DNA from: an uncultured Eubacteriales bacterium
GTDB lineage: Bacteria; Bacillota; Clostridia; Oscillospirales; Acutalibacteraceae
Reading direction: 5' to 3'
DNA length: 64,000 nucleotides
Assembly: GCA_900316345.1 (NCBI GenBank)
Contig: ONCR01000011.1
Coordinates: 7,257-71,256 of the forward strand
Under the pieces are notes generated by a model that saw nothing but the letters and a program-made list of their open reading frames with translations, was not told the DNA's origin and made no database searches. This document shows, piece after piece, positions 2,229 to 31,203 of the stretch. The translations under genes and the position numbers were made by a program. Numbering within the stretch: the stretch's first letter is position 1; every line of letters begins with the position of its first letter.

Positions 2229-2287
2229 AGGAATCACCTTTTTACAGTTTTTCACAAATACATTATATAACATTTCTTATTAAAAGT

Positions 2288-6197: not shown

Positions 6198-6518
6198 TTA
6201 ATTTACTATATCAGAGCCTACGGCCCTTTCTACAAATGAGCTTACCTGCTCCATACCTATACCCGTATTTCCGAAAACGCCGGGGATAGGGATAATTGCC
6301 GGAAGAGGCTCATCGTTATATCTGCTGATTTCACTTTGAATTTGCGAAGCAAGATTTTCCGTTATAAAGATTACTGCGTAATCGTTTTCCGCAAGATTTC
6401 TTATTGTTTTAACGGCGTCAATACCGCTTTCAACGGGATATATAACAATACCGAGAGAGGCAAAGCCGTAAATGCTGTTTTTATCGCCTATTGCGGCAAT
6501 TTTATACATAAAGCTCAC
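6198..6518 (-). CDS. V-type ATP synthase subunit F
   Basis: 106 aa ([19 protein letters not shown]...AVIFITE), the typical small F subunit, placed between C and A. Confidence 0.85.
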
Positions 6519-7503
6519 GCATCCTTTCTCTTATTACATCCGTTGAAACATGGCTCTGCTTTGCCGAAAGGATAACGCGAAGGCATTTTACCTCGGTTTC
6601 CTTTGCGCAGTAATAAGCCGCAAGGGGGCTTATTCCAAAAGCAGTCATCTTTGCCTTTTTAACTATTTCAAGCAGCTTATCATCACAGTATTTTTCAAAC
6701 GCCGAGCCGCCTTTTTCAAGCTCTGCACGGTAATCGGAAAAGCCTGTATTAGTAAGATAATCGCAAAACTCCTCCATACCGTCTGCCGCCGCGTTAACAA
6801 AATCGGCCTTTTTAAGCTTTTCGCAGTTTGCAATAGCCATATCAAGATAAACGGAATTCTTGCCCGTTTTAACGGCGCGATATGCCGTTTTAATATTCGT
6901 TGCAACGCAGTATTCCTCGGCGTAATTAATAAGCACGTCGTCGTTACTGCTTTTGGCATAGCATAAAATTGCCTCAAGCGCAGCAGTATCAATTACCGTA
7001 TCGCAAAGCTGCGCTCTTCCGGTTGTTGAAAGAAGCTCAAGCGCCTTTTCGGCACAGCCCGCAGCACATTCCGGAAGCTCGTCAAACCTGCGCTCTGAAA
7101 CGGCCTTTTTTAGCTTTTCTGCGTCAAAAGCGCAGGGCTTTACAAAATAATCATCAGCCGAATGTCCCATAGCCTCAGCCTTAAGAATTGCCTTAAGATT
7201 TTGAAAATCGTTTTTGATAATAAAGGCGTTAAGCGCCTCAGCCTCGGGAGCGGCCTTTTTAATATAATCCCATGCGCCGTTTAGCTCAATATCAAGCGTT
7301 TTTGAATAATTTCCGCCCGAAGGGATATTGTATCCCTTTTCGTTTAAAAGCGTTACCGCTTTTTCATAGCTTTCGGCATTGATAAGCTGTTCAAGGTCGC
7401 TTCGCGTAAGAAGCGAATTTTCAAGCGCACGAACGGAAGCAACTGCAAAAAGATAATCGTTTCTTTTCAATATGCTTCCCTCCTTAACTGAATAAAAGAG
7501 CAT
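6502..7503 (-). CDS. ntpC: V-type ATP synthase subunit C (eukaryotic d-like)
   Basis: 333-aa helical protein in the expected operon position between E and F. It overlaps both neighbours, which suggests translational coupling. Confidence 0.85.
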   Translation of the reverse strand: MLFYSVKEGSILKRNDYLFAVASVRALENSLLTRSDLEQLINAESYEKAVTLLNEKGYNIPSGGNYSKTLDIELNGAWDYIKKAAPEAEALNAFIIKNDFQNLKAILKAEAMGHSADDYFVKPCAFDAEKLKKAVSERRFDELPECAAGCAEKALELLSTTGRAQLCDTVIDTAALEAILCYAKSSNDDVLINYAEEYCVATNIKTAYRAVKTGKNSVYLDMAIANCEKLKKADFVNAAADGMEEFCDYLTNTGFSDYRAELEKGGSAFEKYCDDKLLEIVKKAKMTAFGISPLAAYYCAKETEVKCLRVILSAKQSHVSTDVIRERMRELYV

Positions 7504-8071
7504 TCAGCGCGTCACGCAGCTCGTCACGCTTGGAAGCTGCAATAGCGTCAAAGGAGCAGTTAATATCAATATCGCCGTAAACAAGAACGAAGCCGCCGTC
7601 AGTGTTCGTACTGTCGCCGAGGATAACGCTTTTTCCTTTGCCGAGTTCGCTGTTAACGGAGCTTATAAAATCCTTCGGAAGCCTGTTAACGTCTGAATCA
7701 GAGAGGCGAAGAACGCCCTCCCCTTCCTTGGCATTATTAATAATAAGCGTTTTGATAACTTCAAAATATTCCTTATCGTCAAGCGATTTAATTGAAGCAA
7801 GAGCCTTACCGAGCATATCGTCAATAGTTTCAAGCTTCGCCTTAAGAATAACCTTGCTTTTTCCGAGCTCTGCTGAGGAAACGGCGGACTGTTTAATATC
7901 CTCCGCCTTTTTGGCGGCGTTTGCTTCAGCATTGCCGATTATATTCTTTGCCTGCTCTTCTGCCTTTTCAATAATGCCCTTTGCGTTCTCTTCTGCCTGC
8001 GAAATTATGCTTTTACAACGGTCGTTTGATTCATATTCAATTTGTGAAATAATTTTTTCAAGACCTGTCAT
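7484..8071 (-). CDS. ntpE: V-type ATP synthase subunit E
   Basis: 195 aa with an Ala/Lys/Glu-rich N-terminal coiled coil and a globular C-terminus (GGFVLVYGDIDINCSFD), the typical stator E subunit. Confidence 0.88.
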   Translation of the reverse strand: MTGLEKIISQIEYESNDRCKSIISQAEENAKGIIEKAEEQAKNIIGNAEANAAKKAEDIKQSAVSSAELGKSKVILKAKLETIDDMLGKALASIKSLDDKEYFEVIKTLIINNAKEGEGVLRLSDSDVNRLPKDFISSVNSELGKGKSVILGDSTNTDGGFVLVYGDIDINCSFDAIAASKRDELRDALNALLFS

Positions 8072-8082
8072 ATATTTTCACC

Positions 8083-10534
<2,452 letters not shown>

Positions 10535-10581
10535 TTTGAGCTTTGCCGTAGGTCATCACCCCATTTCCTTTGAAGTGTAGT

Positions 10582-10893
10582 TTACTGAAGTATAATATTT
10601 TTTACTGCGTCAATGGTTTCGCTTAGCTTATCAGAGCTGATTTCCTTCAGCTTTTCAGTATAAGCAAGCGCTTCGTTTTCAGCCTCGGCAACCGAAGAAG
10701 CGGCGTCCTTCTGCGCGCCTTCAACGGTGCGCTTATAGGCGGCGTCTGCCTCTGCCTCTGCATTTGAAACGATTTCCTTTGCCTTGAGGTTCGCGTTTTC
10801 AAGGATTTTTTCTGCTTCAAGCCTTGCGTTTTGCTCGTTTTCAGCGGTAACCTTTTCCTTTTCCAAAACCTCGCTGAGCATATCAGATACCAT
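10582..10893 (-). CDS. Small coiled-coil V-ATPase stator subunit (G/H-like), first gene of the operon
   Basis: 103 aa, Ala/Glu/Lys-rich and predicted to be a single long helix. Position and size match the G-type peripheral stalk subunit; the sequence alone is low-complexity. Confidence 0.6.
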   Translation of the reverse strand: MVSDMLSEVLEKEKVTAENEQNARLEAEKILENANLKAKEIVSNAEAEADAAYKRTVEGAQKDAASSVAEAENEALAYTEKLKEISSDKLSETIDAVKNIILQ

Positions 10894-10988
10894 TTTTTCA
10901 CCTTCTTTTATATTATCTAATTGAATATATCATATATATTATTTTATTTCAATAATTTACAGTTTTTTTAATCAATTTGTCATTAATT

Positions 10989-11024
10989 AAAAAAATGCAG
11001 AGGGAGAGTCAGGCTCCCTCTGCA
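10989..11024 (-). terminator. Rho-independent terminator ending the surface-protein/small-ORF transcription unit
   Basis: Minus strand reads TGCAGAGGGAG-cctgact-CTCCCTCTGCA (11-bp perfect stem) followed by TTTTTTT. Confidence 0.85.
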
Positions 11025-11086
11025 CATAAGGAGAAACAGCGGCAGGGACGAAAGGATTAAAAGCCTGCCGCCGATATGAAGCTGTT

Positions 11087-11206
11087 TCAGAATTCTATTT
11101 CCTCGTCGCCTTCCTCCCAGCCGGGAGTAGTGACAGATTCCGTAACAACGTCCTTAAAAGTAAATTTATCAATATTTAATTCAGGCTCAATATATTTCTT
11201 TTTCAC
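11087..11206 (-). CDS. Candidate 39-aa small ORF (MKKKYIEPELNIDKFTFKDVVTESVTTPGWEEGDEEIEF)
   Basis: It is below the ORF-track size cutoff. An AAGGAGG RBS (11214..11220) sits immediately after the stop of the upstream ORF, 7 nt before GTG at 11206 (an in-frame ATG at 12212 would be too close; the in-frame ATG is at 11212). The ORF ends in TGA at 11087 and the strong terminator follows ~60 nt downstream. No homologue is assigned. Confidence 0.45.
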   Translation of the reverse strand: MKKKYIEPELNIDKFTFKDVVTESVTTPGWEEGDEEIEF

Positions 11207-11220
11207 GTACATACCTCCTT

Positions 11221-11607
11221 CTAAACATTCGCCGAGGAGCAGATATTTCCGTAATAAATGGCCTCGTAATCTTCGCTTTCGCCGTCGCTGTTGATAAAGA
11301 AGAACTTATACTTAACATAAGCCCTTGTATAAACTACGGCTTCGTCGCGTTTAACTATTGAAAGCGAAAACTGCTTTGTAGAATCAATGGTTTTCTTGCT
11401 TTTCTGGATATATACACCCTCCGTGCCTATTACAAAATCATCGGCGGTAAGACCGTTATTTTTGCTGAATAGCGTTCCCGCTTCAACAACAGTTACGCCT
11501 TCGGGAAGGTTTTGCGTATACGCGCTGTGAGTAGTAAACTTTTCGTCCCCTTCGGCGCCTGTTGATTCGGCATAGCTGTAGATAAACGGAAGGCCGAAGT
11601 TAAGCAT
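11221..11607 (-). CDS. 128-aa ORF encoding a beta-rich C-terminal module, probably the out-of-frame 3' end of the upstream surface-protein gene
   Basis: It starts 8 nt after the upstream stop in a different frame. I see no convincing RBS. By eye it aligns with the C-terminal ~110 aa of the 21..2228 protein (VVEAGTLFSK/IETIGIAYIK; YTRAYVKY/AVKGYMTY; EAIYYGNI/RIAYTNQI). Confidence 0.55.
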   Translation of the reverse strand: MLNFGLPFIYSYAESTGAEGDEKFTTHSAYTQNLPEGVTVVEAGTLFSKNNGLTADDFVIGTEGVYIQKSKKTIDSTKQFSLSIVKRDEAVVYTRAYVKYKFFFINSDGESEDYEAIYYGNICSSANV

Positions 11608-11615
11608 ATGAAGGG

Positions 11616-14600
11616 TTAGCTTATAAAGCTTTCATCCTTATAAGCAAGGTAGGAATAGCTGTCGCCGTAAGCAATCGGCGTAAGAGCGCCGTTATTCAGA
11701 ATTGCAAGGGCGTAAGACTGATTATCGCCCGTTACTGTTGTAAATGCGTCATAGGCAATATTTTCCTGAACGTTTTTGCCGTCATAGCCTACGCTTGCAA
11801 CATAGCCGCCGTCGGGATTTGAATATTCGCCCTTGACGGTTAAAACGCCGTCAACTGCAGCTTCGCTTACCTTAACACTTCCGCTGAGGCTGTATCCGGT
11901 CAAGATATAATTACCTTTAGAGAGGAGGGAATAATCTATACCGTTTACCCTTAGTTTAGTACCGGATACAGTTACTTCATCCTCAGCGGAAGCCGGAAGA
12001 ATATTAACGGTTCTGCCGAACGCGTCAACAATCTTAACCGCGTATTCCGGACATACGGGAGAAGCATAAGCCTTAACCTTGATGTTACTTTGTGTTTTCA
12101 CTTCATATGTTGAGGAATCTACACAAAGCGTTTGAGTATTTTCGCCAAGGCCGTTATCGTCTGTAAGCTCCCACTTATATATTTTTCCGTATTCTTCGGG
12201 AGCTTCAAGCTTAACTACGGAGCCGTAAGCATACTCGCCCGTACCGTCAACATTGCTGTAGAGCACACCGTTTTCGTCAACAACCGAAAAATCAACAGAA
12301 AAGGTCTGAACGCTGAGTTCAACATTATTTTCGTTAATAGCGGTAAGAAGCTCTGTTACGCGTTTATCGGATTCATTAATCAAATCCTGTGTGCCTATTT
12401 CTCGTTGTTCGTTATAATCGTTTTCATCAAATCTGTCGGTCGTTTTAAACGCGTCAAACTTCCTTTTAGCTTCGGCAAGGGCGCTGTTAGCCTCATCGCT
12501 GTACTTCTCGTGGTCAAGCGTTTCGTAAACAAGGTTCATATAGTTATAAACCGAAACATCAACACCCTCAACCTTTTCGTGGTTGGTTTTATCAACAACA
12601 CAAACAAAGGTTGCTAAATCGTTGTCCTCGCTGTCATAACCGAAGAGATGCTTTCTTCCGCCGGCAATAAGCGCTTCACGGGAAACTCTGAGGTTTTCTG
12701 CCGCCGTCTCAGCAGTGCTCTTATCGGTATAGATGTTTGACATAACGGCGTTAATTTCGTCCTTCGCCGTCTGAAGCGCCGCTTCGTAATCATCCCAAAG
12801 CTTCATATCAAAGCAATCGTAATTTGTATCGTAATCAAAGGAAATTACGATTTCCTGCCTTAAGTCCTCATATTCCTCGTCCTTATCAAATTCGCCTTCT
12901 TCAACAATTTCCGCGGCCTTTTCCATATCTGTGCAGGCGCCGTTAATCTTATCAACCGCTGTTTTAACGCCTGTTTCAATATTGGCAGCATAGTCAATGG
13001 TACCCATTGAAATATCTATACCCGTTACGCCGTCAACCTTTTTAAGAAAGTCCATAATTTCAGCAGCGCCCGTATCGCTGTTAGGAATAGCGTTAAACAC
13101 ATCCTTCTGTTCGGAGAGCTTCTTTAAAACAGGAACGATGTTGATTACATAAATCGGGGTTTGCTCATCTGAGTTTGTGTCTGATGTTTTTACGCTCGTT
13201 TCAGAGGTACCGCTACCCGTTCTTGCTCTCCAGCTTAATACAAATTTCTTTGATGTTGCTTCGGTTACTCCGGCGAAATCTGTTGCGCCGCTAATATATT
13301 TAATACCGTTAGCATAGCCGTTTCTTGCCTCACGGCCGCTCTTGGAATTATGCTTTTTATCGGCAAAAATATACGGAGTAACGCTGCTGTCCTTCGTATC
13401 GCCCGCGGTAATATAAGCGGTAATGTGATTTGTTGTGCTGTAATATGAGCTGTCATACTGAGCAACGGAGGTGCCGTCCATGCAGCCTGACCAGTTCAGC
13501 GCAAGAGAATCCATATTCATACTGTCGTCGTCATCGTGGTCCGCTTCGGCAATACCCTTCCAAAGGTGGTTAATGATATTGAAGTTTGCAGTATTAATAA
13601 GGCTTACAGTATAAACATAACGTTTCGTTTCGTTAATACTCAAAAGCGGACTCGCCGTGTTGTAGCCGACGTACTGAACAGGTAGCTTTGCATCATTAAT
13701 GCCGTCATATAACAGAACTGTGGGCGAATAGTAAACATAGTTATTGATGTCGCCTTTATTAGCAAAACGCTCGCCTACATGGTTTAAGCCCTGCTGCCAG
13801 TAAATGATATTATCATAAAGGCTTGTAACCTCTGAACTTTTAGTATTTGTTGTAAAGGTTGAGAAGGTAGGCACAACGTTTGCAGACTCCATATCAAAAT
13901 CCGTCATAGCTTCAAGATTATCGTGGAAGCTGACAACAAGCTCCTCAAGTGTCGGGTCCTCAAACTCGGTTGTGTCGCCGTAAGTGTAAGCGTCAATATA
14001 TTCCTTAGCTTTAATGTAATCCACATAGGTGTTATACATATTCATATACACCATTGTATTTTCGCCGTCGATAGCGGCAATTTTGCGCTCATAATCCTTA
14101 ACATACTCGATAAGCGTGTTCATCTGTGCCGAAATGCTTGACGGCTTAAGGTTCTGAAGGCCTGCGATAGCCTTGTCCATATCCTCGCTGTATTTATCAG
14201 CATAATAAACAACGTCGGAAGCAAAGTTGTAATTTGCAGGATTAAGGCTTGTTGCGGCGTCAAATGCACTGAAAATGCTTTCAAGTCCGCCGGCTTTATA
14301 ATCGGAAACCGCTGAAATATACTGTGCAGCATCCTCGCCTGCTGCGGCAATGGCTTCGCTCATCTTTTTCTGATTAATAAGGTAAATGCCGTTACTCCAG
14401 GACATTGAATATTCCGTACCGTCAGAGGAATCGCTACCGTTGTCGCCGTAAGCGTTCCATGATGTTTTACCAATAACCTTAACATTTTCGTCGAACGCTC
14501 CGCCTTTATAAATAATAGAGTTCTTAAGGCTTACTGCTGAATTGCTTGAACCGACTTGTATTAAATTTGCATTTGAGCCCGACGGAGCCGTTGCCGCAAG

Positions 14601-15266
14601 AGTAAGACCTGTTCCTGCATTCCAGTTGAAATCAACATTTCCGCCATACCAGATATCGTTTTTCATTTTGAAATCATCGTTTTCAACAATGTAGATACCC
14701 TTTGCTTTATAGGCATAACGGGAGCCTTCCTTTAATCCGCTCATAACAGGAACGCTAATTGGATTTACACCGTCATAGAGAAATACGCAACGCGGATAGT
14801 AAATATACGCAAAGCAGCCGTAAACAAGCAATCCTCTCTTACGGAGAATCTCTGTACCGCCCGTAAATGTGGTATCAGTTCCCTTATAAGCAACAAGATT
14901 GTTATAGTAACCGCTGTCAATCGTAACGCCGTTAATTGAAGCAGTACCCGTTGCGGTAATTCCTGTATAAGCGGTCATCTGCTCGGTTTGCTGAACAAGA
15001 GCAACCGTTGCGCCTTCAAGATCGACGGTTCTTCCGTTATCATAGGCATTAGCGGCGCCTATTGCGCTTTTATAGGCTGTATATGCCTTTGACATATTTG
15101 TGTAAACCGTTCCGTCCATTTTTGCTTCGTATGCTTCAATTGCCGAAGCAAGAGCTTCTCGTTCGGCTGAATCAGCAGACGCGGTAAACGGAAACACGGT
15201 TAATGCCGTAAGCACCATAACGATTGACATAAGCAAAGCAAATGCTTTTTTCGTAAGCTTTTTCAT
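11616..15266 (-). CDS. Large secreted surface protein (1216 aa) with a signal peptide, helical FIVAR-like segments and an internally duplicated beta-rich domain
   Basis: ORF 11616..15308. I prefer the ATG at 15266 (MKKLTKKAFALLMSIVMVLTALTVFPFTASA/DSAE), which has AGGAGG 8 nt upstream. The longer GTG start at 15308 lies inside the leader terminator hairpin. Confidence 0.8.
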   Translation of the reverse strand: MKKLTKKAFALLMSIVMVLTALTVFPFTASADSAEREALASAIEAYEAKMDGTVYTNMSKAYTAYKSAIGAANAYDNGRTVDLEGATVALVQQTEQMTAYTGITATGTASINGVTIDSGYYNNLVAYKGTDTTFTGGTEILRKRGLLVYGCFAYIYYPRCVFLYDGVNPISVPVMSGLKEGSRYAYKAKGIYIVENDDFKMKNDIWYGGNVDFNWNAGTGLTLAATAPSGSNANLIQVGSSNSAVSLKNSIIYKGGAFDENVKVIGKTSWNAYGDNGSDSSDGTEYSMSWSNGIYLINQKKMSEAIAAAGEDAAQYISAVSDYKAGGLESIFSAFDAATSLNPANYNFASDVVYYADKYSEDMDKAIAGLQNLKPSSISAQMNTLIEYVKDYERKIAAIDGENTMVYMNMYNTYVDYIKAKEYIDAYTYGDTTEFEDPTLEELVVSFHDNLEAMTDFDMESANVVPTFSTFTTNTKSSEVTSLYDNIIYWQQGLNHVGERFANKGDINNYVYYSPTVLLYDGINDAKLPVQYVGYNTASPLLSINETKRYVYTVSLINTANFNIINHLWKGIAEADHDDDDSMNMDSLALNWSGCMDGTSVAQYDSSYYSTTNHITAYITAGDTKDSSVTPYIFADKKHNSKSGREARNGYANGIKYISGATDFAGVTEATSKKFVLSWRARTGSGTSETSVKTSDTNSDEQTPIYVINIVPVLKKLSEQKDVFNAIPNSDTGAAEIMDFLKKVDGVTGIDISMGTIDYAANIETGVKTAVDKINGACTDMEKAAEIVEEGEFDKDEEYEDLRQEIVISFDYDTNYDCFDMKLWDDYEAALQTAKDEINAVMSNIYTDKSTAETAAENLRVSREALIAGGRKHLFGYDSEDNDLATFVCVVDKTNHEKVEGVDVSVYNYMNLVYETLDHEKYSDEANSALAEAKRKFDAFKTTDRFDENDYNEQREIGTQDLINESDKRVTELLTAINENNVELSVQTFSVDFSVVDENGVLYSNVDGTGEYAYGSVVKLEAPEEYGKIYKWELTDDNGLGENTQTLCVDSSTYEVKTQSNIKVKAYASPVCPEYAVKIVDAFGRTVNILPASAEDEVTVSGTKLRVNGIDYSLLSKGNYILTGYSLSGSVKVSEAAVDGVLTVKGEYSNPDGGYVASVGYDGKNVQENIAYDAFTTVTGDNQSYALAILNNGALTPIAYGDSYSYLAYKDESFIS

Positions 15267-15282
15267 TTTTAGTTCCTCCTTT

Positions 15283-15332
15283 AAAAATAAAAAGACCGAC
15301 TGCAACACTTAAAATAAGAATTGCAGCCGGTC
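15283..15332 (-). terminator. Riboswitch expression platform: intrinsic terminator in the leader of the surface-protein gene
   Basis: Minus strand reads GACCGGCTGCAA (15332..15321), a 15-nt loop, then TTGCAGTCGGTC (15305..15294). This is 12 bp with one G-U pair, followed by TTTTTATTTTT. The 5' arm is the 3' end of the conserved aptamer-like element. Confidence 0.75.
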
Positions 15333-15400
15333 GATCATACAATAAATTGGTTAGACACCTTGCTTTGCGTCACCGCCTTTCGACGGCTTTGCCCTTTAAT
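15321..15400 (-). promoter_or_regulatory. c-di-GMP-I (GEMM-I) riboswitch-like aptamer, copy 1
   Basis: Minus strand reads AUUAAAGGGCAAAGCCGUCGAAAGGCGGUGACGCAAAGCAAGGUGUCUAACC...GAUCGACCGGCUGCAA. It contains the GGCAAA / GNRA loop CGAAAG / GACGCAAAGC core of GEMM-I. It lies in the 5' leader of a surface-protein gene, and a paralogous copy sits 1.2 kb upstream. Confidence 0.8.
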
Positions 15401-16502
15401 CTGATTTTCTTTTTAATTGTTTTTCCTTATACATATTACGGTCCGCGCGTTGAATCAAATCTTCAAACGCTTCGCCGTTTTCCGGAGTTCCCCTCGCCCG
15501 TCCGAAAGAACAGGTTAAGCCTTCGGCTACTCCTTCGATTTTAAGGGAATCCAGGTCATTATGTATTTTGTTTTTTAAGGCTTCAAAATCATAATTATTA
15601 AGCCCTATGTTTATAATTAAAAACTCGTCTCCGCCATAGCGGTAAATATATTTTTCATCAATATTTGCCTTAAAAACATCGGCAATTGAAGCAATAACCC
15701 TGTCGCCGACTATATGGCCGTAGGTATCGTTAATATGCTTAAAATTATCACAGTCACACATAACAAGATAAAGGTGCTTATTGTAATAATTAACGCTGTC
15801 TTCAATAAGCGCATAGCGGTTTTTAAGCTTAGTAAGAACGTCGTATCTTACTGCCCTTTCAAGCGCGGAATTAAGCGAGGCAACCTTTTGGCGGCCCAAT
15901 TGCTGTTTTCGCATAAGGTGATACTTTGCCGAGCTTGCTACAATACAGATACAGGCAAAGGCAAAGAAATTCAGAATATGAATCGATGGCGCTCCGTCGA
16001 AATGAACCAAAACAATGTAACAAACGGTAAACGAAACGGAAAGAAGAATAAGGCTGATATAAGGTTTGATTATTATAAACGCAGCATATGTTACCATTAC
16101 AATATAAAAGGTTATTATATCCTTGCCATAAATATAGTGATTATACGAAAGATAGATGCTGTAAGCAGTAAGAATGGAAAAAGCAATAACCGTAACAACG
16201 GTAATCTTTATATGGGAAACAAATTCATAATTCTTTGCACGTTCAGAATAAAAGTAAAAGAACAAACAGAAAAATACAACAAATGCAACTGACATTGTGC
16301 TTTCCTTTATGTTTCTTACCTGAACAAGACCGGTTGCAACAAAAAGATAAGTAAACAGCTCATAAACTATAACAACTAAAGATATACTGTTAACATTTTT
16401 GATATTAGCTTTGTCCATTTCATTTGTAACACTTAAGGAATCCTTAGGACAGAGTATACTTTTAAGCCAAGATAAAAGATTTTTCATAAATAACCTTAAC
16501 AT
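15396..16502 (-). CDS. Membrane-bound diguanylate cyclase (polytopic N-terminal domain plus GGDEF domain)
   Basis: About 6 predicted TM helices are followed by a GGDEF domain (DVLTKLKNRYAL...DNFKHINDTYGH..GD...RYGGDEFLI...ADRNMYKEK). The start is ambiguous: ATG at 16502 abuts the leader terminator U-tract, and Met-6 at 16487 is the alternative. Confidence 0.9.
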   Translation of the reverse strand: MLRLFMKNLLSWLKSILCPKDSLSVTNEMDKANIKNVNSISLVVIVYELFTYLFVATGLVQVRNIKESTMSVAFVVFFCLFFYFYSERAKNYEFVSHIKITVVTVIAFSILTAYSIYLSYNHYIYGKDIITFYIVMVTYAAFIIIKPYISLILLSVSFTVCYIVLVHFDGAPSIHILNFFAFACICIVASSAKYHLMRKQQLGRQKVASLNSALERAVRYDVLTKLKNRYALIEDSVNYYNKHLYLVMCDCDNFKHINDTYGHIVGDRVIASIADVFKANIDEKYIYRYGGDEFLIINIGLNNYDFEALKNKIHNDLDSLKIEGVAEGLTCSFGRARGTPENGEAFEDLIQRADRNMYKEKQLKRKSD

Positions 16503-16503
16503 A

Positions 16504-16562
16504 TAAAAATCGACCGCAAATATATCGCATTGAAAAAAGCAATACTTTTGCGGCCGGTCGAT
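16504..16562 (-). terminator. Riboswitch expression platform: terminator-like hairpin in the leader of the cyclase gene
   Basis: On the minus strand, AUCGACC(ggcc)GCAAA (16562..16547) pairs with UUUGCGGUCGAU (16520..16509) and is followed by UUUUUA. The 26-nt loop contains a small hairpin. The 5' arm overlaps the 3' end of the aptamer-like element. Confidence 0.6.
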
Positions 16563-16630
16563 CGTATAGTTTTAGCTACTTAGACACCATAGCTTTGCGC
16601 CACCGCCTTTCGACGGGTTTGCCAAATATT
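16547..16630 (-). promoter_or_regulatory. c-di-GMP-I (GEMM-I) riboswitch-like aptamer, copy 2
   Basis: Minus strand reads UUUGGCAAACCCGUCGAAAGGCGGUGGCGCAAAGCUAUGGUGUCUAAGUAGCUAAAACUAUACGAUCGACCGGCCGC. It has the same core as copy 1 and lies between a consensus promoter and the GGDEF gene. Confidence 0.78.
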
Positions 16631-16647
16631 AATAAATTGTTAACATT

Positions 16648-16675
16648 ATTATATCAAAAATTTCAAATTTGTCAA
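16648..16675 (-). promoter_or_regulatory. Sigma-A type promoter for the riboswitch-cyclase transcript
   Basis: Minus strand reads TTGACA (16675..16670), a 16-nt spacer ending in TG, then TATAAT (16653..16648), about 20 nt upstream of the aptamer. Confidence 0.65.
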
Positions 16676-16744
16676 TAGTTTATCAAAAAAATTACCGCAC
16701 ATTTTAAACAAAGTTTTTCCGATAAAAGTACAGTAATAATTAGT

Positions 16745-16776
16745 AAAAACAACAAAAGCAGTGAATTAACACTGCT
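16745..16776 (-). terminator. Terminator after tRNA-Leu
   Basis: Minus strand reads AGCAGTG-ttaatt-CACTGCT followed by TTTGTTGTTTTT, 4 nt after the tRNA 3' end. Confidence 0.6.
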
Positions 16777-16780
16777 TAAG

Positions 16781-16865
16781 TGGTGCGCCTGACAGGACTT
16801 GAACCTGCACATCGGTAGATACTAGATCCTAAATCTAGCGCGTCTGCCAATTCCGCCACAGGCGC
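16781..16865 (-). tRNA. tRNA-Leu (anticodon UAG), class II with a long variable arm and encoded CCA
   Basis: Minus strand reads GCGCCTG-TG-GCGGAATTGGCAGACGCGC-TAGAT-TTTAGGA-TCTAG-long variable arm-GTGCAGGTTCAAGTCCTGT-CAGGCGC-A-CCA. The 7-bp acceptor stem, T-loop GGTTCAAGTCC and anticodon loop TT-TAG-GA are all present. Confidence 0.92.
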
Positions 16866-16897
16866 AAATGTGCGCGCTGTAAATAAACAACGTGGTT

Positions 16898-16925
16898 ATA
16901 ATAACACTTTATTCAGGGCTTTGCA
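16898..16925 (-). promoter_or_regulatory. Putative promoter of tRNA-Leu
   Basis: Minus strand reads TTGCAA, a 16-nt spacer, then TATTAT, about 30 nt upstream of the mature tRNA 5' end. Confidence 0.4.
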
Positions 16926-16930
16926 AGTGT

Positions 16931-17443
16931 TTATTCAGCTTTGTTTTTCTTTGATTTAACAATTCTTACAACAAATAAAACAATAATTACGGCAAAAACG
17001 AAATACATTAAAACGGTTTTTACGCTCGTAACCGCAGAAGCAAAGTGAATGAAACCATCGTTTGTATTAATCCCCTTCAACATCATTATTGAGCAGATAT
17101 TTTCGATATAATCAAGAACGGCAAGAACAATCGGGGCGGCAAGAAGAGCCGACCTTTTTTTCATAAGCGCATATACAGCAAAACAGAAAAACAGGCAATA
17201 TGCAATCGGGTAAACAAAATCAAGCGGAAGCTGAACGTGAAGATATGTATTCAGACCTTCGGGAGAAAGCAACGCCAAAAACCGTTTTGCGTCGTCGACG
17301 GAATATCCGAAATTCATATCAAAACAGCGTATTCCCTCGGTTGATTTTTCAATCGACGGAATCAGGACAAGGTTCATTACAAGGCAGATTACAGCCGTAA
17401 CCGCGCCGCTTACAATCAGAACAAGCTTTTCTTTCTTTTTCAT
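16931..17443 (-). CDS. Hypothetical polytopic membrane protein
   Basis: ORF 16931..17503. I prefer the Met at 17443 (MKKKEKLVLIVSGAVTAVICLV...) because the longer form overlaps comFC by 56 nt. It has about 5 hydrophobic helices. No family is recognised. Confidence 0.6.
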   Translation of the reverse strand: MKKKEKLVLIVSGAVTAVICLVMNLVLIPSIEKSTEGIRCFDMNFGYSVDDAKRFLALLSPEGLNTYLHVQLPLDFVYPIAYCLFFCFAVYALMKKRSALLAAPIVLAVLDYIENICSIMMLKGINTNDGFIHFASAVTSVKTVLMYFVFAVIIVLFVVRIVKSKKNKAE

Positions 17444-17447
17444 ATAA

Positions 17448-18158
17448 TCACCTTTTCTTCTTATGTTTGTTTGTAACCGTAAATGCCGCTGTATAAACCG
17501 CATTTGCGCCCGAATCCTTTACGGTAAAGGCAAGCTCGCTTAACGTGCTTCCGGTTGTTTTAACGTCATCAACAATCAACACGGTTTTGTTTTTGACATC
17601 CTTGCCTTCGATAAGGCTGAATGCGCCGTACAGGTTTGCTCTTCTTTCTTTTGCGCTTGATTTTCTCTGAGATTTGGTACGGCGGTTTTTATAAATCAAT
17701 TCGTCAAAAGGCACGCCGAGCCCGGCGGCGGTTTCACGCGCGAGAAGTTCGGACTGATTATAGCCGCGCTTTCTTTTTCTGCTTTTTGTCATCGGCACGC
17801 AGGTAACAACGTCAAAGCTCACGTCCTTAAAACGAAGCTTAACAGCCTTAACAATGTTTTCGCTCATAGCGGGAACAAGCTCCTTAAAGCCGGCGTTTTT
17901 CAGCCTGTAAACCGCTGAAACCGCGCTTCCTTCAAAATAATACGGAGCACAGAATGCCTTATAATCAGGCGAAAACTTTTCAATACTGCAAACGCAGTTA
18001 TTTACCTCGCGGCCGCATTTATTGCAGATTTTCCCTTCAATCATACTCAGGGCTTCGCATTGTTCACAGCGAATTTTATCAAGCTCAATTACTTCGCCGC
18101 ACAGCTCACAGCGTTTCGGGAATAAGACGTACAACAGCCTTTTAACTGCGCCGGTCAT
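17448..18158 (-). CDS. comFC: ComF family protein (ComFC-like phosphoribosyltransferase with an N-terminal zinc finger)
   Basis: An N-terminal C-x2-C...C-x2-C cluster is followed by a PRPP-binding loop VLIVDDVKTTGSTL. It lies next to comEA. Confidence 0.85.
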   Translation of the reverse strand: MTGAVKRLLYVLFPKRCELCGEVIELDKIRCEQCEALSMIEGKICNKCGREVNNCVCSIEKFSPDYKAFCAPYYFEGSAVSAVYRLKNAGFKELVPAMSENIVKAVKLRFKDVSFDVVTCVPMTKSRKRKRGYNQSELLARETAAGLGVPFDELIYKNRRTKSQRKSSAKERRANLYGAFSLIEGKDVKNKTVLIVDDVKTTGSTLSELAFTVKDSGANAVYTAAFTVTNKHKKKR

Positions 18159-25542: not shown

Positions 25543-26270
25543 TTATTTCACTTTGACCTTAACGGTTTTTACGATACCGTTCTGTGCGTAAACATAGATG
25601 GTAACGGTACCCTTTTTCTTTGCTTTTATATTGCCCTTTGCGTCTACGGTTGCAATCTTTTTATTGCTGCTTTCGTAGCGGAACTTGGCAATATGAGTTG
25701 CCACCTTGCCCTTGCTTTGAAGCGTGGCTTTGATTTTAGTTTTCTTTCCTTTTTTAAGAGTAATCTTTGCTTTCTTTAACTTAATACCAGTCGGGTTGCC
25801 CTTCTTGCCGCCCGGGGTTGCGCAGTGAACGGATTTGGATTTGCTCATTATCCTGTTACCCGCGGCAGTCTTTTTGTAGGCTACAACAACGTATTTATAA
25901 TACTTGCCCTTCTTTAGCTTTTTGAAGGTATATTTAACCGCTTTCGGATTTGCTACTGTTGCCGCCCTTTCAAGTTTGTTTCCGCAGGGCGCGGCATAAA
26001 TTATATATCCGTCCGCTCCGCTGACTGCTTTCCACGAAACGGTAATATTGGTTTTCTTTGTTGTTGCTTTAAGCTTAAGCGGCGCATAAGCCGAGCCTGA
26101 AACATCCTTTTTATCCGTGTTGGTTTTCTTGATAAGCTCCTCCGTTTTCTCCTCGGTTGGCATTGCCGCCTCTTCGGGAGTGAGTGCGGGAGCGGGCTCC
26201 TTGTAATCGGGATTTGCCGCGCCGCAACGCTTGCACACTTTTTCATTATCCCCGAAATCGTGACCGAGCG
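25543..26270 (-). repeat. Direct repeat copy A (3' coding module shared by two surface-protein genes)
   Basis: Near-identical at nucleotide level to 28595..29322. The encoded 241-aa modules differ at 12 positions by my count. Confidence 0.9.
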
Positions 26271-28584
26271 CAGAGATTTCTGCTACATTGGTTTTTTCGC
26301 CGCAGAGAGAGCATACGTCTGCAGTAAAGCCCTTTTCGGTACAGGTCGGCTGAACGGTGGTTGCAACATTATTATGCGCGTGAGTATTATTGTGAATTTC
26401 GCCTGCGGTATGCTTAATACTGTCGTCGCCGTAGCGCACCTTAGCATTGAGCGTATTGGACACAACGGTTGCGTTTGTTTCGCCGATATCAACAGTATAC
26501 TCGCCGTCCGTTACAACCGTATTACTCGGAACGGTTGCTCCGCCGAGGCTGATAATTCCTATATCGCTTGAATTGATTGTGTTACTTGAAACAACGCCAT
26601 CCGAATTTACTACCGAAGCATCGCCCGCCCCGAGTGCGGAAACACCGACGAGATAATCGCCTGCGGCAGTAATATTATTATTAAATGCGGTTACGTGCTT
26701 CTTTTTGTCGCTTGAGTTTTCGTAAAAGCGAACTCCGAGAGAGAAATGTCCTTTAATATCTATCTCGTTTTCTACCGCCGCAAGGTCAGCTGCGCCTGCG
26801 GAGTTAGATACAAAATTCACTCCGTAAGCCATTTCCGCTTCAGCGTTTATTTTATTCAGAACAACTGAATTATTAAAGTCTGCGCCGCCTATAATCATAT
26901 CCACGGCAGCGGCGTAATACTCCGCCTTACAGCTGACCATATTTTCCGTGATGTTGCTTCTCTTCGTGTTGGTACTGAAGGCGTAAGCGTAGGTTTTTCC
27001 TTCCACGCTTACCGCATTACCGTTTGCGTTAAAGACAGCATTTGCTGTGGCGGGATTATCCGTTGTAACGGCGTAAACTGTATCATAGCTGCCGACGGCT
27101 TCCGTCGCTTTCAAAACAACGGTATTACCGATAAAGTTCACTTCGTTACAGTTTGAAAATGCAATTCCCGCAGAGGTCGGCACTCCTACCCAGCTACCTG
27201 AGCCTGCAGGCTTTTCCTGCCAGATTGTCTGCTCGGAAGCAAGGCGGATATCAAAGGTATTATCCTTTACCGTAACGGCGGAAATCGGGCTGATTTCATC
27301 GCCGCTTACGACAAGCGCACGGCGCAATTTGCCCTTCGTTCTGTCGCCCGTAAAGGTGATGTTATTATTAGTGAGCATTACGCCGCTTGCATTTTCTATC
27401 TTCACGGCGTATTCGCCCGTCTGCGTAATAGTAAGCCCGTCAATGCTGACATTGTCAGCGGTAATCAGGAACGAGATACCGCTGAAGGTTGCATTTTCAG
27501 AGGTAATGTCAACCGTCTGATTAACCGTGATTGTTGAAACATCAAGACCGGCGAAATCGCCGCTAAAGATGAGCGCGGGCTTATCCGTAGGTTTCAGAAC
27601 GCCGCTCGCGTCAAAGTAATCGTGGAAATTATCCTTGGTTACGGTTATCGCATTCGGCGCAATAATAACCTCACCGGAATCAACAAGCGACGCGCCCTTG
27701 GCATATGCCACTTTTTCGCCGAGCGTGATTTTTTCCTGCGGGAAGCTCACACCGCCTATGGCGGAGTTTACCGTCAGTTTTCCGCCGTTTACGGTAAAGC
27801 TGCAGCGGTAATCCTTATCATCGGGCTGCTCGGGGTTGGCAACATAAGGCTCAACGGTGATGCCGTAGCCGTCGGTTGAGGTAAGTGAAACTGTACCGCT
27901 TTCCATAACGAAGGCGTGCTGCGAATCGTCGCTGTTTCCGAAATGAAGCGCGGAATGGTAGTTGCTGACATTGAGCGTAGCGCCGTTTACGGTAACGGTT
28001 GCATTCTGACTGGCAACAATACCGTCATAGTTCGTTGTGGTTTTATTGACTGTAACGGTGCAATCGAGAAAATCAATATTGTGGTTAACCCATATGCTTG
28101 CGCACTGAGAATTAGTAACGGTGAGCGTTGCGCCGTCCTTAACGGTAAGGTTACCGCCGGGCGTTTCCCAATCGCCGATATAGGTTCCGTAATACGGGTT
28201 GTTGATAGCGAGGCTTCCGCCGCCCTTAATAATGACATCGCAGCCGCCCGCGGTATCAATGCCGTCGGCGTAAGTATTTGTACTTTCAAGCACATTGTCG
28301 CCTTCTAAAACGATGTTCAGCGTTGGAAGCTCGCTGTAAATCATCGCTTCGTACCACGGCTTAAATTCATAAGTATCCGAAATGCTTGCGCCGCTCAGCG
28401 TTAGAGTACTTCCCGCCGCGTCGAACGAAACCGTGCCGTCGCCTAAAACGTCGGCTGCGTTCTCTGAATTAACCTGAAAGCCGCCTACAAACAGCGCATA
28501 TTCTTCCGAATCCGCATACGCGCTCATAGGGAATGCGCTGATAAGCATAACAAGCGCAATCAACAATGATAAAAACTTTTTCAT
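25543..28584 (-). CDS. Secreted surface protein with a signal peptide, right-handed beta-helix-like repeats, a Cys-rich ALGH motif, a Lys-rich linker, and FN3-like plus Big_2-like C-terminal domains
   Basis: 1013 aa. Signal peptide MKKFLSLLIALVMLISAFPMSAYA. It has long Asn/Thr/Gly/Val-rich beta-helix-like repeats, and the C-terminal 241 aa are nearly identical to the neighbour. Confidence 0.8.
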   Translation of the reverse strand: MKKFLSLLIALVMLISAFPMSAYADSEEYALFVGGFQVNSENAADVLGDGTVSFDAAGSTLTLSGASISDTYEFKPWYEAMIYSELPTLNIVLEGDNVLESTNTYADGIDTAGGCDVIIKGGGSLAINNPYYGTYIGDWETPGGNLTVKDGATLTVTNSQCASIWVNHNIDFLDCTVTVNKTTTNYDGIVASQNATVTVNGATLNVSNYHSALHFGNSDDSQHAFVMESGTVSLTSTDGYGITVEPYVANPEQPDDKDYRCSFTVNGGKLTVNSAIGGVSFPQEKITLGEKVAYAKGASLVDSGEVIIAPNAITVTKDNFHDYFDASGVLKPTDKPALIFSGDFAGLDVSTITVNQTVDITSENATFSGISFLITADNVSIDGLTITQTGEYAVKIENASGVMLTNNNITFTGDRTKGKLRRALVVSGDEISPISAVTVKDNTFDIRLASEQTIWQEKPAGSGSWVGVPTSAGIAFSNCNEVNFIGNTVVLKATEAVGSYDTVYAVTTDNPATANAVFNANGNAVSVEGKTYAYAFSTNTKRSNITENMVSCKAEYYAAAVDMIIGGADFNNSVVLNKINAEAEMAYGVNFVSNSAGAADLAAVENEIDIKGHFSLGVRFYENSSDKKKHVTAFNNNITAAGDYLVGVSALGAGDASVVNSDGVVSSNTINSSDIGIISLGGATVPSNTVVTDGEYTVDIGETNATVVSNTLNAKVRYGDDSIKHTAGEIHNNTHAHNNVATTVQPTCTEKGFTADVCSLCGEKTNVAEISALGHDFGDNEKVCKRCGAANPDYKEPAPALTPEEAAMPTEEKTEELIKKTNTDKKDVSGSAYAPLKLKATTKKTNITVSWKAVSGADGYIIYAAPCGNKLERAATVANPKAVKYTFKKLKKGKYYKYVVVAYKKTAAGNRIMSKSKSVHCATPGGKKGNPTGIKLKKAKITLKKGKKTKIKATLQSKGKVATHIAKFRYESSNKKIATVDAKGNIKAKKKGTVTIYVYAQNGIVKTVKVKVK

Positions 28585-28594
28585 TTTTCTCTCC

Positions 28595-29322
28595 TTATTT
28601 CACTTTGACTTTGATTGTTCTACAGAGTCCGTTCTGTGCGTAAACATAAATGGTAACGGTACCCTTTTTCTTCGCTTTGATATTGCCTTTTGAATCTACG
28701 GTTGCAATCTTTTTATTGCTGCTTTCGTAGCGGAATTTTGCAATATGGGTTGCAACCTTGCCTTTGCTTAGAAGCGTGGCTTTGATTTTCGTTTTCTTGC
28801 CTTTTTTAAGAGTAATCTTTGCTTTCTTTAACTTAATACCCGTCGGGTTGCCTTTTTTACCGCCCGGGGTTGCACAGTGAACAGATTTTGATTTACTCAT
28901 TATCCTGTTGCCCGCGGCAGTCTTTTTGTAGGCTACGACGATATATTTATAATACTTACCCTTCTTTAGCTTTTTGAAGGTATATTTAACCGCTTTCGGA
29001 TTTGCTACGGTTGCCGCCCTTTCAAGCTTGTTTCCGCAGGGCGCGGCATAAATTATATATCCGTCCGCTCCGCTGACTGTTTTCCACGAAACGGTAATAT
29101 TGGTTTTCTTTGTTGTTGCTTTAAGCTTAAGCGGCGCATAAGCCGAGCCTGAAACGTCCTTTTTATCCGTGTTGGTTTTCTTGATAAGCTCCTCCGTTTT
29201 CTCCTCCGTAGGCATCGCCGCCTCCTCGGGAGTCAGAACGGGAGCGGGCTCTTTGTAATTGGGATTAGCAACGTTGCAACGCTTGCACACTTTTTCGTTG
29301 TCGCCGAAATCGTGACCGAGCG
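28595..29322 (-). repeat. Direct repeat copy B (3' coding module shared by two surface-protein genes)
   Basis: Partner of 25543..26270. Similarity ends sharply upstream of the LGHDFGDNEKVCKRC motif. Confidence 0.9.
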
Positions 29323-31081: not shown

Positions 31082-31203
31082 AACTATACTCCCTCTCATT
31101 TTTGAAAAAATGTATGGTATGCGCTGATTATATATTATCACAAAAAATATCTAATGTAAAGTTAACTTCATATAAATAGACTTATATTGATTTTAAATAA
31201 CAT

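Follow-up and report, generated by a model that had tools for sequence, protein, structure and literature searches.

Two c-di-GMP-I riboswitches, probably in series, on either side of a predicted membrane diguanylate cyclase gene in an uncultured rumen Ruminococcaceae

Does the leader of a predicted diguanylate cyclase gene sense the product of the enzyme that it precedes, and does the ligand then open or close the gene? We addressed this question in a 64-kb window, i.e., the whole stretch of DNA analysed (64,000 nucleotides), from an uncultured rumen Ruminococcaceae. A preliminary description of the locus had proposed a c-di-GMP riboswitch acting either in a positive feedback or as a homeostat. 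The answer that we regard as probable is that a single transcription unit carries, one after the other, two c-di-GMP-I riboswitches, both most likely transcriptional ON switches. Its computed support comes from the class of the aptamers, the strand shared between aptamer and terminator, conservation, covariation, the pattern of promoters and the catalytic motifs of the enzyme.

The aptamers and their surroundings

All the features described here are on the minus (-) strand. The unit is adjoined upstream by a tRNA-Leu gene (anticodon UAG; 16781..16865), identified by ARAGORN and by Rfam RF00005 (58.3 bits), whose position is kept in the orthologous loci L001 and L002, where the tRNA is also matched. 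It is split from the riboswitch transcription unit by a terminator-like hairpin that the consensus scan places 3' of the tRNA (AAGCAGTG...CACTGCTT, then TTGTTGTTTT; 16756..16777). Promoter A (16648..16675) consists of a -35 TTGACA at 16675-16670, a 16-nt spacer and an extended -10 TGaTATAAT, with the TG at 16656-16655 and the hexamer at 16653-16648. It had been described as a near-consensus promoter before the GGDEF open reading frame (TTGACA-16-TGaTATAAT), and it agrees with the consensus at 12/12 positions in our scan, in addition to the TG extension. The predicted transcription start (~16641) is 5' of the entire aptamer A. Extended -10 promoters (10-12/12) are found 11-38 nt 5' of the A aptamers in 9/9 orthologous loci.

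Aptamer A (16546..16633) lies between this promoter and the GGDEF gene. The minus-strand RNA quoted for it in the preliminary description is present in the sequence as given there. Its assignment to the c-di-GMP-I class (GEMM-I), for which a search with RF01051 had been suggested as a check, holds: the match is full-length (model positions 1-87) and scores 57.2 bits for a gathering score of 35 bits (E 1.5e-8 over the whole window, 4e-10 in a local scan), well above what chance would give. The control suggested with it, the c-di-GMP-II model RF01786, gave no match in 15200-16950 even at E <= 10, and the c-di-GMP-II class was rejected on this ground. A second c-di-GMP-I aptamer, B, which had been overlooked, is located at 15319..15403 (RF01051, 68.7 bits, E 2.3e-11, model 1-87). 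No Rfam family besides RF01051 competes for either aptamer.

Both aptamers have the GNRA-type hairpin and the CUAAG...UAUG-type receptor of the c-di-GMP-I class. The first hairpin of A has a GAAA tetraloop capping CCGUC/GGCGG, and the second hairpin carries the receptor (UCUAAG...UACGA in A, UCUAAC...UAUGA in B). The equivalents of Vc2 G20, A47 and C92 in aptamer A are G, A and C, where A47 and C92 are placed by our own alignment to Vc2. Across 15 aptamers (two in the window and 13 orthologous ones), the A47 and C92 equivalents are invariant and the G20 equivalent (model position 11) is G in 15/15. The latter is the selectivity position, equivalent to G11 of Cd1 (PMC9262584). In the nine orthologues, 93.9% of the cells of the aptamer A fold pair and seven pairs are changed on both sides; the observed covariation score is matched by 0/500 shuffles. 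Leader A is confirmed as a genuine c-di-GMP-I class riboswitch, and the predicted aptamers A and B would be expected to bind c-di-GMP. Aptamer A scores below aptamer B (57.2 vs 68.7 bits), and the window copy has a G at position 16600 where all the orthologues and the Rfam consensus have an A (GGCGC vs GACGC), which could alter its affinity.

A strand shared by aptamer and terminator

Terminator A (16501..16556) is made of a 5' arm CGGCCGCAAA (16556-16547), a 3' arm UUUGCGGUCG (16520-16511) and a U-tract AUUUUUAUAU (16510-16501). Its 5' arm overlaps the 3' strand of aptamer P2 and the C92 equivalent. The aptamer and terminator folds are mutually exclusive, as the preliminary description had seen, and one strand is common to both. 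The alternative pairing proposed there is real, but its register (AUCGACC...GCAAA) is slightly off: the orthologues favour CGGCCGCAAA/UUUGCGGUCG. They back this pairing also against the minimum-energy register given by ViennaRNA (AUCGACCG...CGGUCGAU), which was set aside. The hairpin has an energy of -24.5 kcal/mol and is part of the leader's minimum-energy fold. Over nine loci, 88% of the cells of the outer stem pair, against at most 47% in shifted registers, and there are compensatory changes from C-G to U-A and from G.U to G-C (e.g., GGCCGC/GCGG in the window vs GGCUGC/GCAG in L013). The inner stem (UAUUGC/GCGAUA) varies in sequence and is kept as a stem in every locus.

In terminator B (15283..15332), the 3' strand of aptamer B serves as the 5' arm GACCGGCUGCAA (15332-15321), followed by the 3' arm UUGCAGUCGGUC (15305-15294) and the U-tract UUUUUAUUUUU (15293-15283). 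Its 12-bp stem pairs in 72/72 cells over six loci, against at most 50% in shifted registers. This terminator is also within the minimum-energy fold of its leader, and enforcing aptamer B costs +15.1 kcal/mol.

An expression platform made of an intrinsic terminator with a strand common to the aptamer is found in 15/15 leaders, and the ligand-free minimum-energy fold is the terminator in all of them. Forcing the aptamer pairs costs between +1.6 and +18.9 kcal/mol across these leaders, and the hairpin that remains is then no longer adjacent to the U-tract; these energies concern secondary structure only, ignoring the tertiary fold of the aptamer and the kinetics of co-transcriptional folding. No intervening anti-terminator was found in any of the 15 leaders. 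Since the 5' arm of the terminator is the 3' strand of aptamer P2, stabilisation of the aptamer can only disfavour the terminator. This overlap, with no anti-terminator in between, makes anti-termination (ON) the better supported of the two polarities initially proposed. We infer that both riboswitches most likely act in vivo as transcriptional ON switches. The published model for GEMM platforms with an overlapping terminator predicts that expression increases with more ligand (PMC1950547). Translational control of the cyclase was rejected: the Shine-Dalgarno AAGG is 3' of the U-tract, outside both folds.

The predicted cyclase, the probable second gate and the output gene

The GGDEF open reading frame reported 3' of the leader encodes a predicted membrane diguanylate cyclase of 363 aa (15396..16487; PF00990, E 1.4e-30; TIGR00254, E 2.1e-28). 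Its start codon had been placed directly after the U-tract (ATG 16502). Comparison with the orthologues moves it to ATG 16487, behind the Shine-Dalgarno AAGG (16497-16494). Hydropathy shows 5-6 hydrophobic segments in the N-terminal ~190 aa, which have no Pfam match even at E <= 10; this membrane domain presumably supplies an external trigger. In the C-terminal GGDEF domain, RYGGDEF and DCDNFKHINDTYGHIVGD are intact. Both are invariant in three orthologues (63-66% identity), as are the DxD that binds metal and, in NDxxGHxxGD, the N and D that bind the substrate. In the latter motif, the enzyme has the canonical Asp and not the Hypr Ser, by comparison with PleD and GacA. These are motifs of active diguanylate cyclases, and such an activity is probable for the protein. 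The RxxD inhibitory (I) site, typical of GGDEF cyclases but not obligatory, is absent from its place five residues before GGDEF in the three orthologues compared (IDEK in the window, LPKG in L001, IEEQ in L002). Diguanylate cyclases without an I site are known, e.g., YfiN (PMC10127611). With its catalytic motifs intact and no RxxD site for product inhibition, the product of the cyclase would feed back positively on its own mRNA. The exact cyclase sequence was also found in rumen metagenome contigs.

The aptamer-cyclase link is present in 9/9 orthologous loci of rumen and gut Ruminococcaceae, at protein identities of 35-100%, and in 0/3 outgroup loci. In the nine loci examined, the aptamer is tied to one specific family of membrane cyclases. 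Where aptamer B is lacking, the cyclase leads directly to Cna_B/SpaA adhesin genes, with no intervening terminator or promoter.

Aptamers A and B are separated by the 1092-nt open reading frame of the cyclase. Tandem riboswitches have several aptamers in one 5' UTR (PMC9481103); the present arrangement is serial within the operon, not tandem within a UTR. The stop codon of the cyclase (15398-15396) is inside the 5' flank of aptamer B, 4 nt before the G20 equivalent, and aptamer B is kept at the same position in L001, L002, L013 and L014. No promoter-like site (at least 8/12) was found in the 150 nt 5' of aptamer B in the window or in these four loci, and the consensus scan of the window found no terminator between the cyclase and aptamer B. 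In L015, aptamer B is 43 nt past the cyclase stop, with a TTGACA-17-TATAAT (12/12) promoter 6 nt upstream. Overall, promoters are found 5' of 9/9 A aptamers vs 1/6 B aptamers. As the A aptamers have strong promoters and five of the six B aptamers have none, c-di-GMP appears to gate the window operon twice, once before and once after the cyclase, and transcription would continue from the cyclase gene through aptamer B.

Behind aptamer B, the window encodes by translation a secreted orphan protein of 1216 aa (11616..15266), with a Shine-Dalgarno AAAGGAGG at 15282-15275 and a signal peptide (...FTASA, then DS). It has no Pfam or NCBIfam match, and only seven homologues (three close, four weak) were found among 5.8 billion sequences; the AlphaFold2 model built from an eight-sequence alignment is unusable (mean pLDDT 42, pTM 0.32). 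The gene is shortened in the window by a frameshifting deletion near 11620, the remainder being the open reading frame at 11221-11607. The full-length protein has 1369 aa in near-identical rumen contigs, and the window protein is 100% identical to the first 1214 aa of the protein of L019. The frameshift explains why an exact look-up of the 1216-aa sequence returned no match, and implies that the output of the circuit may be defective in this genome or assembly.

These data bear on several other readings of the locus. In the homeostat, c-di-GMP would favour termination and the cyclase would be repressed by its own product. Such negative feedback would suit an enzyme without I site, and OFF-type c-di-GMP-I switches do exist, such as Cd1 of C. 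difficile, where the aptamer and terminator folds coexist (PMC9262584). But for an OFF switch, the aptamer with its ligand must sequester an anti-terminator; we rejected it because no such element is present. Furthermore, the 5' arm of the terminator is the 3' strand of P2, with the C92 equivalent, in 15/15 leaders, and the published prediction for this overlap is ON (PMC1950547). We regard this polarity as very unlikely. One may also imagine two independent c-di-GMP-ON units that are adjacent by chance, with no serial gating and with B driven by a separate promoter within the 3' end of the cyclase gene. Aptamer B of L015 does have its own promoter, which shows that the two units can stand apart, and a promoter that is weak or depends on an alternative sigma factor escapes a consensus scan. 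Against this stand the lack of any site of at least 8/12 in the 150 nt before B in the window, L001, L002, L013 and L014, when all nine A aptamers have one of 10-12/12, the cyclase stop codon inside the flank of aptamer B and the lack of a terminator between the two, which make independent units unlikely.

The two remaining readings concern the ligand and the enzyme. It is scarcely credible that the ligand of the aptamers is a different cyclic dinucleotide (3'3'-cGAMP, as in GEMM-Ib), which would make the circuit not autoregulatory: the adjacent enzyme has the canonical Asp of c-di-GMP synthases and not the Hypr Ser, and the G20 equivalent is G, not the A of GEMM-Ib, in 15/15 aptamers. The GEMM-Ib variant was rejected on this G, even if GEMM-I variants that bind c-AMP-GMP are known and G20 contributes to selectivity without acting as a strict filter (PMC9262584, PMC9481103). 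Alternatively, the GGDEF protein could be catalytically inactive or a receptor, in which case the riboswitch would control an effector without feedback. Degeneracy is common among GGDEF proteins, and the membrane domain at the N terminus of this one lacks a Pfam match. Yet the GGDEF, the DxD and the substrate N and D are invariant in the three orthologues (63-66% identity), and degenerate receptor-type GGDEFs usually retain the RxxD that is absent here, which renders an inactive protein highly improbable.

The proposed circuit and its relation to known systems

In the serial arrangement of two ON switches that we favour, transcription would begin at promoter A and aptamer A would be made first. 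Without ligand, the downstream complementary arm would capture the 3' strand of the aptamer, and the hairpin and U-tract would end the transcript before the cyclase. With c-di-GMP bound, aptamer A would keep the shared strand, the terminator would be blocked and the membrane GGDEF cyclase would be transcribed, its product raising its own mRNA in a positive feedback. Aptamer B, without a promoter of its own, would repeat the decision ahead of the large secreted protein, so that the output would require two successive c-di-GMP-dependent read-throughs, the cyclase being made after the first. The expected behaviour is a steep, self-reinforcing commitment of the rumen Ruminococcaceae cell to a c-di-GMP-high state in which the surface protein is expressed. 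Positive feedback or bistability could result; for the latter, non-linearity is needed in addition, together with a suitable activity of phosphodiesterases. Genes for a c-di-GMP phosphodiesterase or a PilZ protein were not found among the 20 largest other open reading frames of the window.

We tentatively propose, as a possibility that goes further and is more doubtful, that the locus is an RNA-only circuit dedicated to commitment: one promoter, gate A, a cyclase without I site, gate B and a surface-protein output, where the first read-through makes the ligand that opens both gates. Positive autoregulation would here be joined to an output that is double-gated and under coherent feed-forward control, and the strain-specific surface proteins or adhesins of fibre-associated rumen Ruminococcaceae would be expressed in a bistable, all-or-none manner. 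The internal riboswitch overlapping the stop codon would then be a selected design, not an accident of gene order. If the logic of the favoured model holds, the cyclase family is a compact natural case of second-messenger positive feedback implemented wholly in RNA. It would shed light on the commitment of uncultured Ruminococcaceae of rumen and gut to an attached lifestyle, and synthetic biology would gain a bistable module that is ready-made and promoter-independent. Riboswitch classification gains nothing; both aptamers are detectable by any Rfam-based annotation pipeline.

The locus is built from known parts. The GEMM ON platform with a terminator whose 5' side overlaps the 3' side of P2 was described in 2007 by Weinberg et al. 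(PMC1950547), and GEMM elements upstream of GGDEF genes were already recorded in 2007/2008. Genes with GGDEF and HD-GYP domains are among the targets listed in PMC1950547, PMC3971182 and PMC12564702; the last two cite Sudarsan et al. 2008 for DGC and PDE genes as targets. The ligand c-di-GMP was reportedly identified by Sudarsan et al. 2008. Compared with ON-type GEMM-I riboswitches of RF01051, the aptamer class, the GNRA/receptor architecture, the ligand contacts, the platform and the gene association are the same. There is no difference in kind, and what the locus adds is an instance not characterised before, from an uncultured rumen Ruminococcaceae. A limited literature search found no experimentally studied riboswitch-gated cyclase loop or intercistronic c-di-GMP riboswitch.

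Several characterised systems resemble parts of this one. Bc3-Bc5 of B. thuringiensis (cbpA/cap, collagen-binding adhesin; PMC9481103, PMC7423583) are likewise serial c-di-GMP-I ON switches with their own terminators and a surface protein as output. A more digital response is expected of this triple tandem (PMC9481103), and likewise here. The B. thuringiensis aptamers are all in one 5' UTR, whereas here the cyclase open reading frame lies between the gates and the first gate would release the enzyme whose product both of them bind. The Desulfuromonas acetoxidans region, with seven riboswitches in 7 kb, also has clusters separated by open reading frames, own terminators and recurring c-di-GMP-I aptamers, but it forms mixed AdoCbl/c-di-GMP/c-AMP-GMP logic gates and no cyclase is reported between them (PMC9481103). 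The c-GAMP riboswitch of Geobacter pilM (GEMM-Ib) is a transcriptional ON switch with mutually exclusive aptamer and terminator; it differs by its ligand (c-AMP-GMP, with A at G20), and by its control of pilus and exoelectrogenesis genes instead of a cyclase (PMC9262584). Cd1, upstream of flgB in C. difficile, shares the aptamer class, the transcriptional control and a Firmicute host, but is an OFF switch with coexisting aptamer and terminator folds that represses flagellar genes (PMC9262584, PMC6200980). Finally, in E. coli, PdeR and PdeL, which are trigger phosphodiesterases, also place a c-di-GMP enzyme under a c-di-GMP sensor in a switch-like loop, with a protein as the sensor and a degrading enzyme, in contrast to the RNA sensor and the predicted synthesising enzyme found here (PMC5052742, PMC12564702).

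Two c-di-GMP-I aptamers around a cyclase gene

An Rfam 15 scan over the whole 64-kb window returned three matches above gathering score. Two belong to the c-di-GMP-I family (RF01051) and both span model positions 1-87: aptamer A, in the leader of the GGDEF cyclase gene (16633-16546(-); 57.2 bits, E 1.5e-8, gathering score 35), and aptamer B, just behind the cyclase (15403-15319(-); 68.7 bits, E 2.3e-11). Aptamer B scores higher than A and was absent from the preliminary description, whose quoted minus-strand leader sequence occurs exactly in the window. The control family was clean, with no c-di-GMP-II (RF01786) match in 15200-16950 at E <= 10, and a permissive Rfam scan of this interval (E <= 10) brought no other family near its own gathering score. 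The open reading frame (ORF) behind aptamer A matches PF00990 (E 1.4e-30) and TIGR00254. The proposed c-di-GMP-I leader before a GGDEF gene is confirmed, and the window aptamers gave positive results in all RF01051 tests that can be run computationally.

The third match is a tRNA (16865-16784(-)), delimited as tRNA-Leu at 16865-16781(-) (ARAGORN/Rfam) and followed by a terminator-like hairpin (16777-16756(-)). Between it and a ComF-like gene lies a 190-aa ORF (16931-17503(-); 170 aa on related contigs) with no match in Pfam or NCBIfam. The near-consensus promoter described earlier holds: promoter A (16675-16648(-)) has TTGACA, a 16-nt spacer and TATAAT with upstream TG, and at 12/12 is the best promoter-like site of the region in a consensus scan.

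Each aptamer overlaps an intrinsic terminator through its 3' strand. In terminator A, the outer stem pairs CGGCCGCAAA (16556-16547(-)) with UUUGCGGUCG (16520-16511(-)), and the tail AUUUUUAUAU (16510-16501(-)) directly follows the 3' arm. The cyclase gene has a Shine-Dalgarno AAGG (16497-16494(-)) and an ATG at 16487(-), a start supported by N-terminal conservation among orthologues, and encodes 363 aa up to a TAA (15398-15396(-)) that lies in the 5' flank of aptamer B, 4 nt before the equivalent of G20 in the V. cholerae reference aptamer Vc2. Terminator B (15332-15283(-)) pairs GACCGGCUGCAA (15332-15321) with UUGCAGUCGGUC (15305-15294), then runs into UUUUUAUUUUU; it is followed by AAAGGAGG and the ATG of the output gene (15266(-)). 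Over an aligned 1.46-kb stretch comprising the leaders and the cyclase, the window differs from the near-identical rumen contig L019 only at 16492(-), in the cyclase ribosome-binding site, where AAGGTTA in the window corresponds to AAGGTGA in L019, nearer the Shine-Dalgarno consensus.

Conservation of the leaders and their probable ligand

Scanning genomes turned up two orthologous loci, both in Ruminococcaceae MAGs (L001 and L002; 66% and 63% protein identity), and a protein search showed that the cyclase family is small (30 members at E <= 1e-40). We fetched contigs for family members across the identity range, which gave a set comprising the window, L001, L002 and L010-L018. An RF01051 aptamer lies directly upstream of the cyclase in 9/9 loci at 35%-100% identity (window, L001, L002, L010-L015) and in none of the three outgroup loci at ~30% (L016-L018). 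A second aptamer right behind the cyclase is found in the window, L001, L002, L013, L014 and L015. The DNA of leader B is nearly invariant while the flanking proteins share only 63-80% identity. The exact cyclase sequence is carried by 12 metagenome contigs, including some from cow-rumen projects, and the host is therefore an uncultured rumen Ruminococcaceae.

Pairing is conserved in both elements. In an alignment of nine A leaders, 93.9% of cells are paired in the Rfam aptamer fold, against at most 49% in shifted registers; seven of the 22 pairs change on both sides, and none of 500 shuffles reached the observed covariation score. The 12-bp outer stem of terminator A is paired in 88% of cells (<=47% in shifted registers), with a C-G to U-A exchange (GGCCGC/GCGG in the window, GGCUGC/GCAG in L013) as well as G.U to G-C exchanges; its inner stem differs in sequence in almost every locus and is present in all. 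In terminator B, 72/72 cells are paired over the six loci, and each of the three one-sided changes keeps the pair intact. At 16600(-), aptamer A has a G in the window and also in L019, the only contig of the same species in the alignment at this point (GGCGCAAAG); an A occupies the position in all eight orthologous A aptamers, in every B aptamer and in the Rfam consensus (GACGCAAAG). This G contributes to the lower score of aptamer A and may alter its affinity.

Across the 15 aptamers, neither the A that follows the GC pair nor the C that follows P2 varies; we align these with A47 and C92 of Vc2. In the NDxxGHxxGD motif the cyclase carries the canonical Asp, where Hypr GGDEFs have Ser (residue assignment after PleD and GacA). 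The G20-equivalent (model position 11) is a G in 15/15 aptamers. The corresponding G11 of Cd1 has been equated with Vc2 G20 and termed the selectivity position (PMC9262584), G marking binders of c-di-GMP and A those of c-AMP-GMP (PMC9481103). Together, the G20-equivalent and the Asp of the enzyme point to c-di-GMP as the probable ligand.

Predicted switch polarity, feedback and operon structure

In the ligand-free minimum-energy structure of all 15 leaders the terminator is fully formed and the outer part of aptamer P2 is missing, which bears out the earlier claim that the two folds share a strand. In these calculations, which ignore tertiary structure and co-transcriptional kinetics, enforcing the aptamer pairs costs +1.6 to +18.9 kcal/mol (+10.2 for window A, +15.1 for window B) and reduces the downstream hairpin to a stub several unpaired bases from the U-tract. 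The strand common to both folds takes in the 3' side of P2 along with the C92-equivalent, and no third element able to serve as an anti-terminator was found in the leaders examined; a ligand-stabilised aptamer should therefore only be able to prevent termination. For the same arrangement, Weinberg et al. 2007 predicted that higher ligand raises gene expression (PMC1950547), and the related pilM c-GAMP switch has been shown experimentally to follow this ON logic, unlike Cd1, which is an OFF switch (PMC9262584). Given the shared-strand anatomy, the 2007 prediction and the pilM logic, A and B are both interpreted as ON switches acting on transcription.

The three closest cyclase orthologues all keep RYGGDEF and DCDNFKHINDTYGHIVGD unchanged, and all three lack an RxxD inhibitory site five residues upstream of GGDEF (IDEK, LPKG, IEEQ). 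The N-terminal ~190 residues have five or six hydrophobic segments by hydropathy and no Pfam match at E <= 10. From these features the enzyme is probably an active, membrane-bound cyclase without product inhibition, which, combined with an ON riboswitch, would give net positive feedback at the RNA level. The preliminary interpretation, which had left positive feedback and a homeostat side by side, is thus supported, with the former favoured.

When the 150 nt ahead of every aptamer were scanned in the same way, 9/9 A aptamers had an extended -10 promoter (10-12/12) 11-38 nt upstream. Aptamer B may be transcribed from a weak or alternative-sigma promoter within the cyclase gene, but five of the six B aptamers, including that of the window, have no promoter-like site of at least 8/12 in the scanned interval. 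A consensus scan found no terminator between the cyclase and aptamer B in the window, and in L011 and L012, which lack B, the cyclase leads straight into a Cna_B adhesin gene with neither promoter nor terminator between them. Most economically, the arrangement is read as a single operon along which RNA polymerase would meet two c-di-GMP-dependent terminators in series, one controlling the cyclase and another, 3' of it, the output gene. The exception is L015, the most distant aptamer-bearing locus (35% identity; aptamers at 3475-3560 and 4733-4818), where aptamer B lies apart from the stop codon of the cyclase and is preceded by a 12/12 promoter of its own. The two L015 aptamers share an identical distal P2 segment (GTAACACAGTTAT); together with this promoter, this suggests that they arose by duplication or underwent gene conversion recently and are transcribed independently. 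Aptamers A and B of the window have an identical first hairpin (CCGTCGAAAGGCGG), in which A differs from the orthologous A aptamers, and this hints at gene conversion here too.

Output genes and known systems

Further out in the family, the cyclase is followed by genes for recognisable Gram-positive surface structures of sortase type (L011 4119-9050; L012 6250-11121; L013 and L014 ~6200-11100). They encode Cna_B proteins, LPXTG-anchored SpaA-type pilins, and VWA/Cna_B proteins accompanied by an S26 signal-peptidase-like gene. Controlling surface adhesins or pili therefore seems to be the module's conserved function. The output of the window lineage is a secreted orphan protein, a 1216-aa ORF whose translation has a typical Gram-positive signal peptide, with no match in Pfam or NCBIfam, only seven homologues in 5.8 billion proteins, and an unusable structure model. 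Its first 1214 residues are identical to a 1369-aa protein of the near-identical rumen contigs L019-L021; relative to these, a deletion of ~64 nt after ...GAAAGCTTT (~11616-11625(-)) shifts the frame, leaving the 1216-aa ORF and a 128-aa ORF (11221-11607(-)) in place of the single one. The gene may truly have become a pseudogene, or the break may reflect a variant of the assembly. The PolC-type DNA polymerase III alpha is also split into two overlapping ORFs (58644-60434(-) and 60313-62370(-)), one carrying the PHP and N-terminal domains and the other the NTPase, finger and HHH domains, which suggests a second frameshift, so some indels of the window may be assembly errors. In L002 (6093-6502), aptamer B and its terminator are intact and the large output gene is absent; only a 52-codon ORF with a good Shine-Dalgarno follows, then a terminator and feoAB. 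With an output gene that varies or is missing among loci, the cyclase and riboswitch thus form the conserved core, and the cargo is variable. Three other large putative surface proteins of the window, one BspA-type LRR and two with Big_2/fn3 domains (21-2273(-), 25543-28584(-), 28595-31141(-)), have no riboswitch match ahead of them in the Rfam scan.

Genes with GGDEF and HD-GYP domains were among the GEMM-associated genes of the 2007 discovery paper (PMC1950547), and two reviews citing Sudarsan et al. 2008 place GEMM upstream of DGC and PDE ORFs (PMC3971182, PMC12564702). In the one literature library searched, we found neither an experimental study of a riboswitch-gated cyclase loop nor any account of a cyclase sitting between two such gates. 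The circuit is clean, conserved and testable, and will not surprise a specialist. Within single UTRs, c-di-GMP-I switches occur in series as 347 doublets and 12 triplets, such as the triplet ahead of an adhesin gene in B. thuringiensis, and in a D. acetoxidans cluster riboswitches recur between ORFs (PMC9481103). Only the placement of the second riboswitch inside the operon is modestly unusual; it makes the cyclase the putative first product of a doubly gated transcript.
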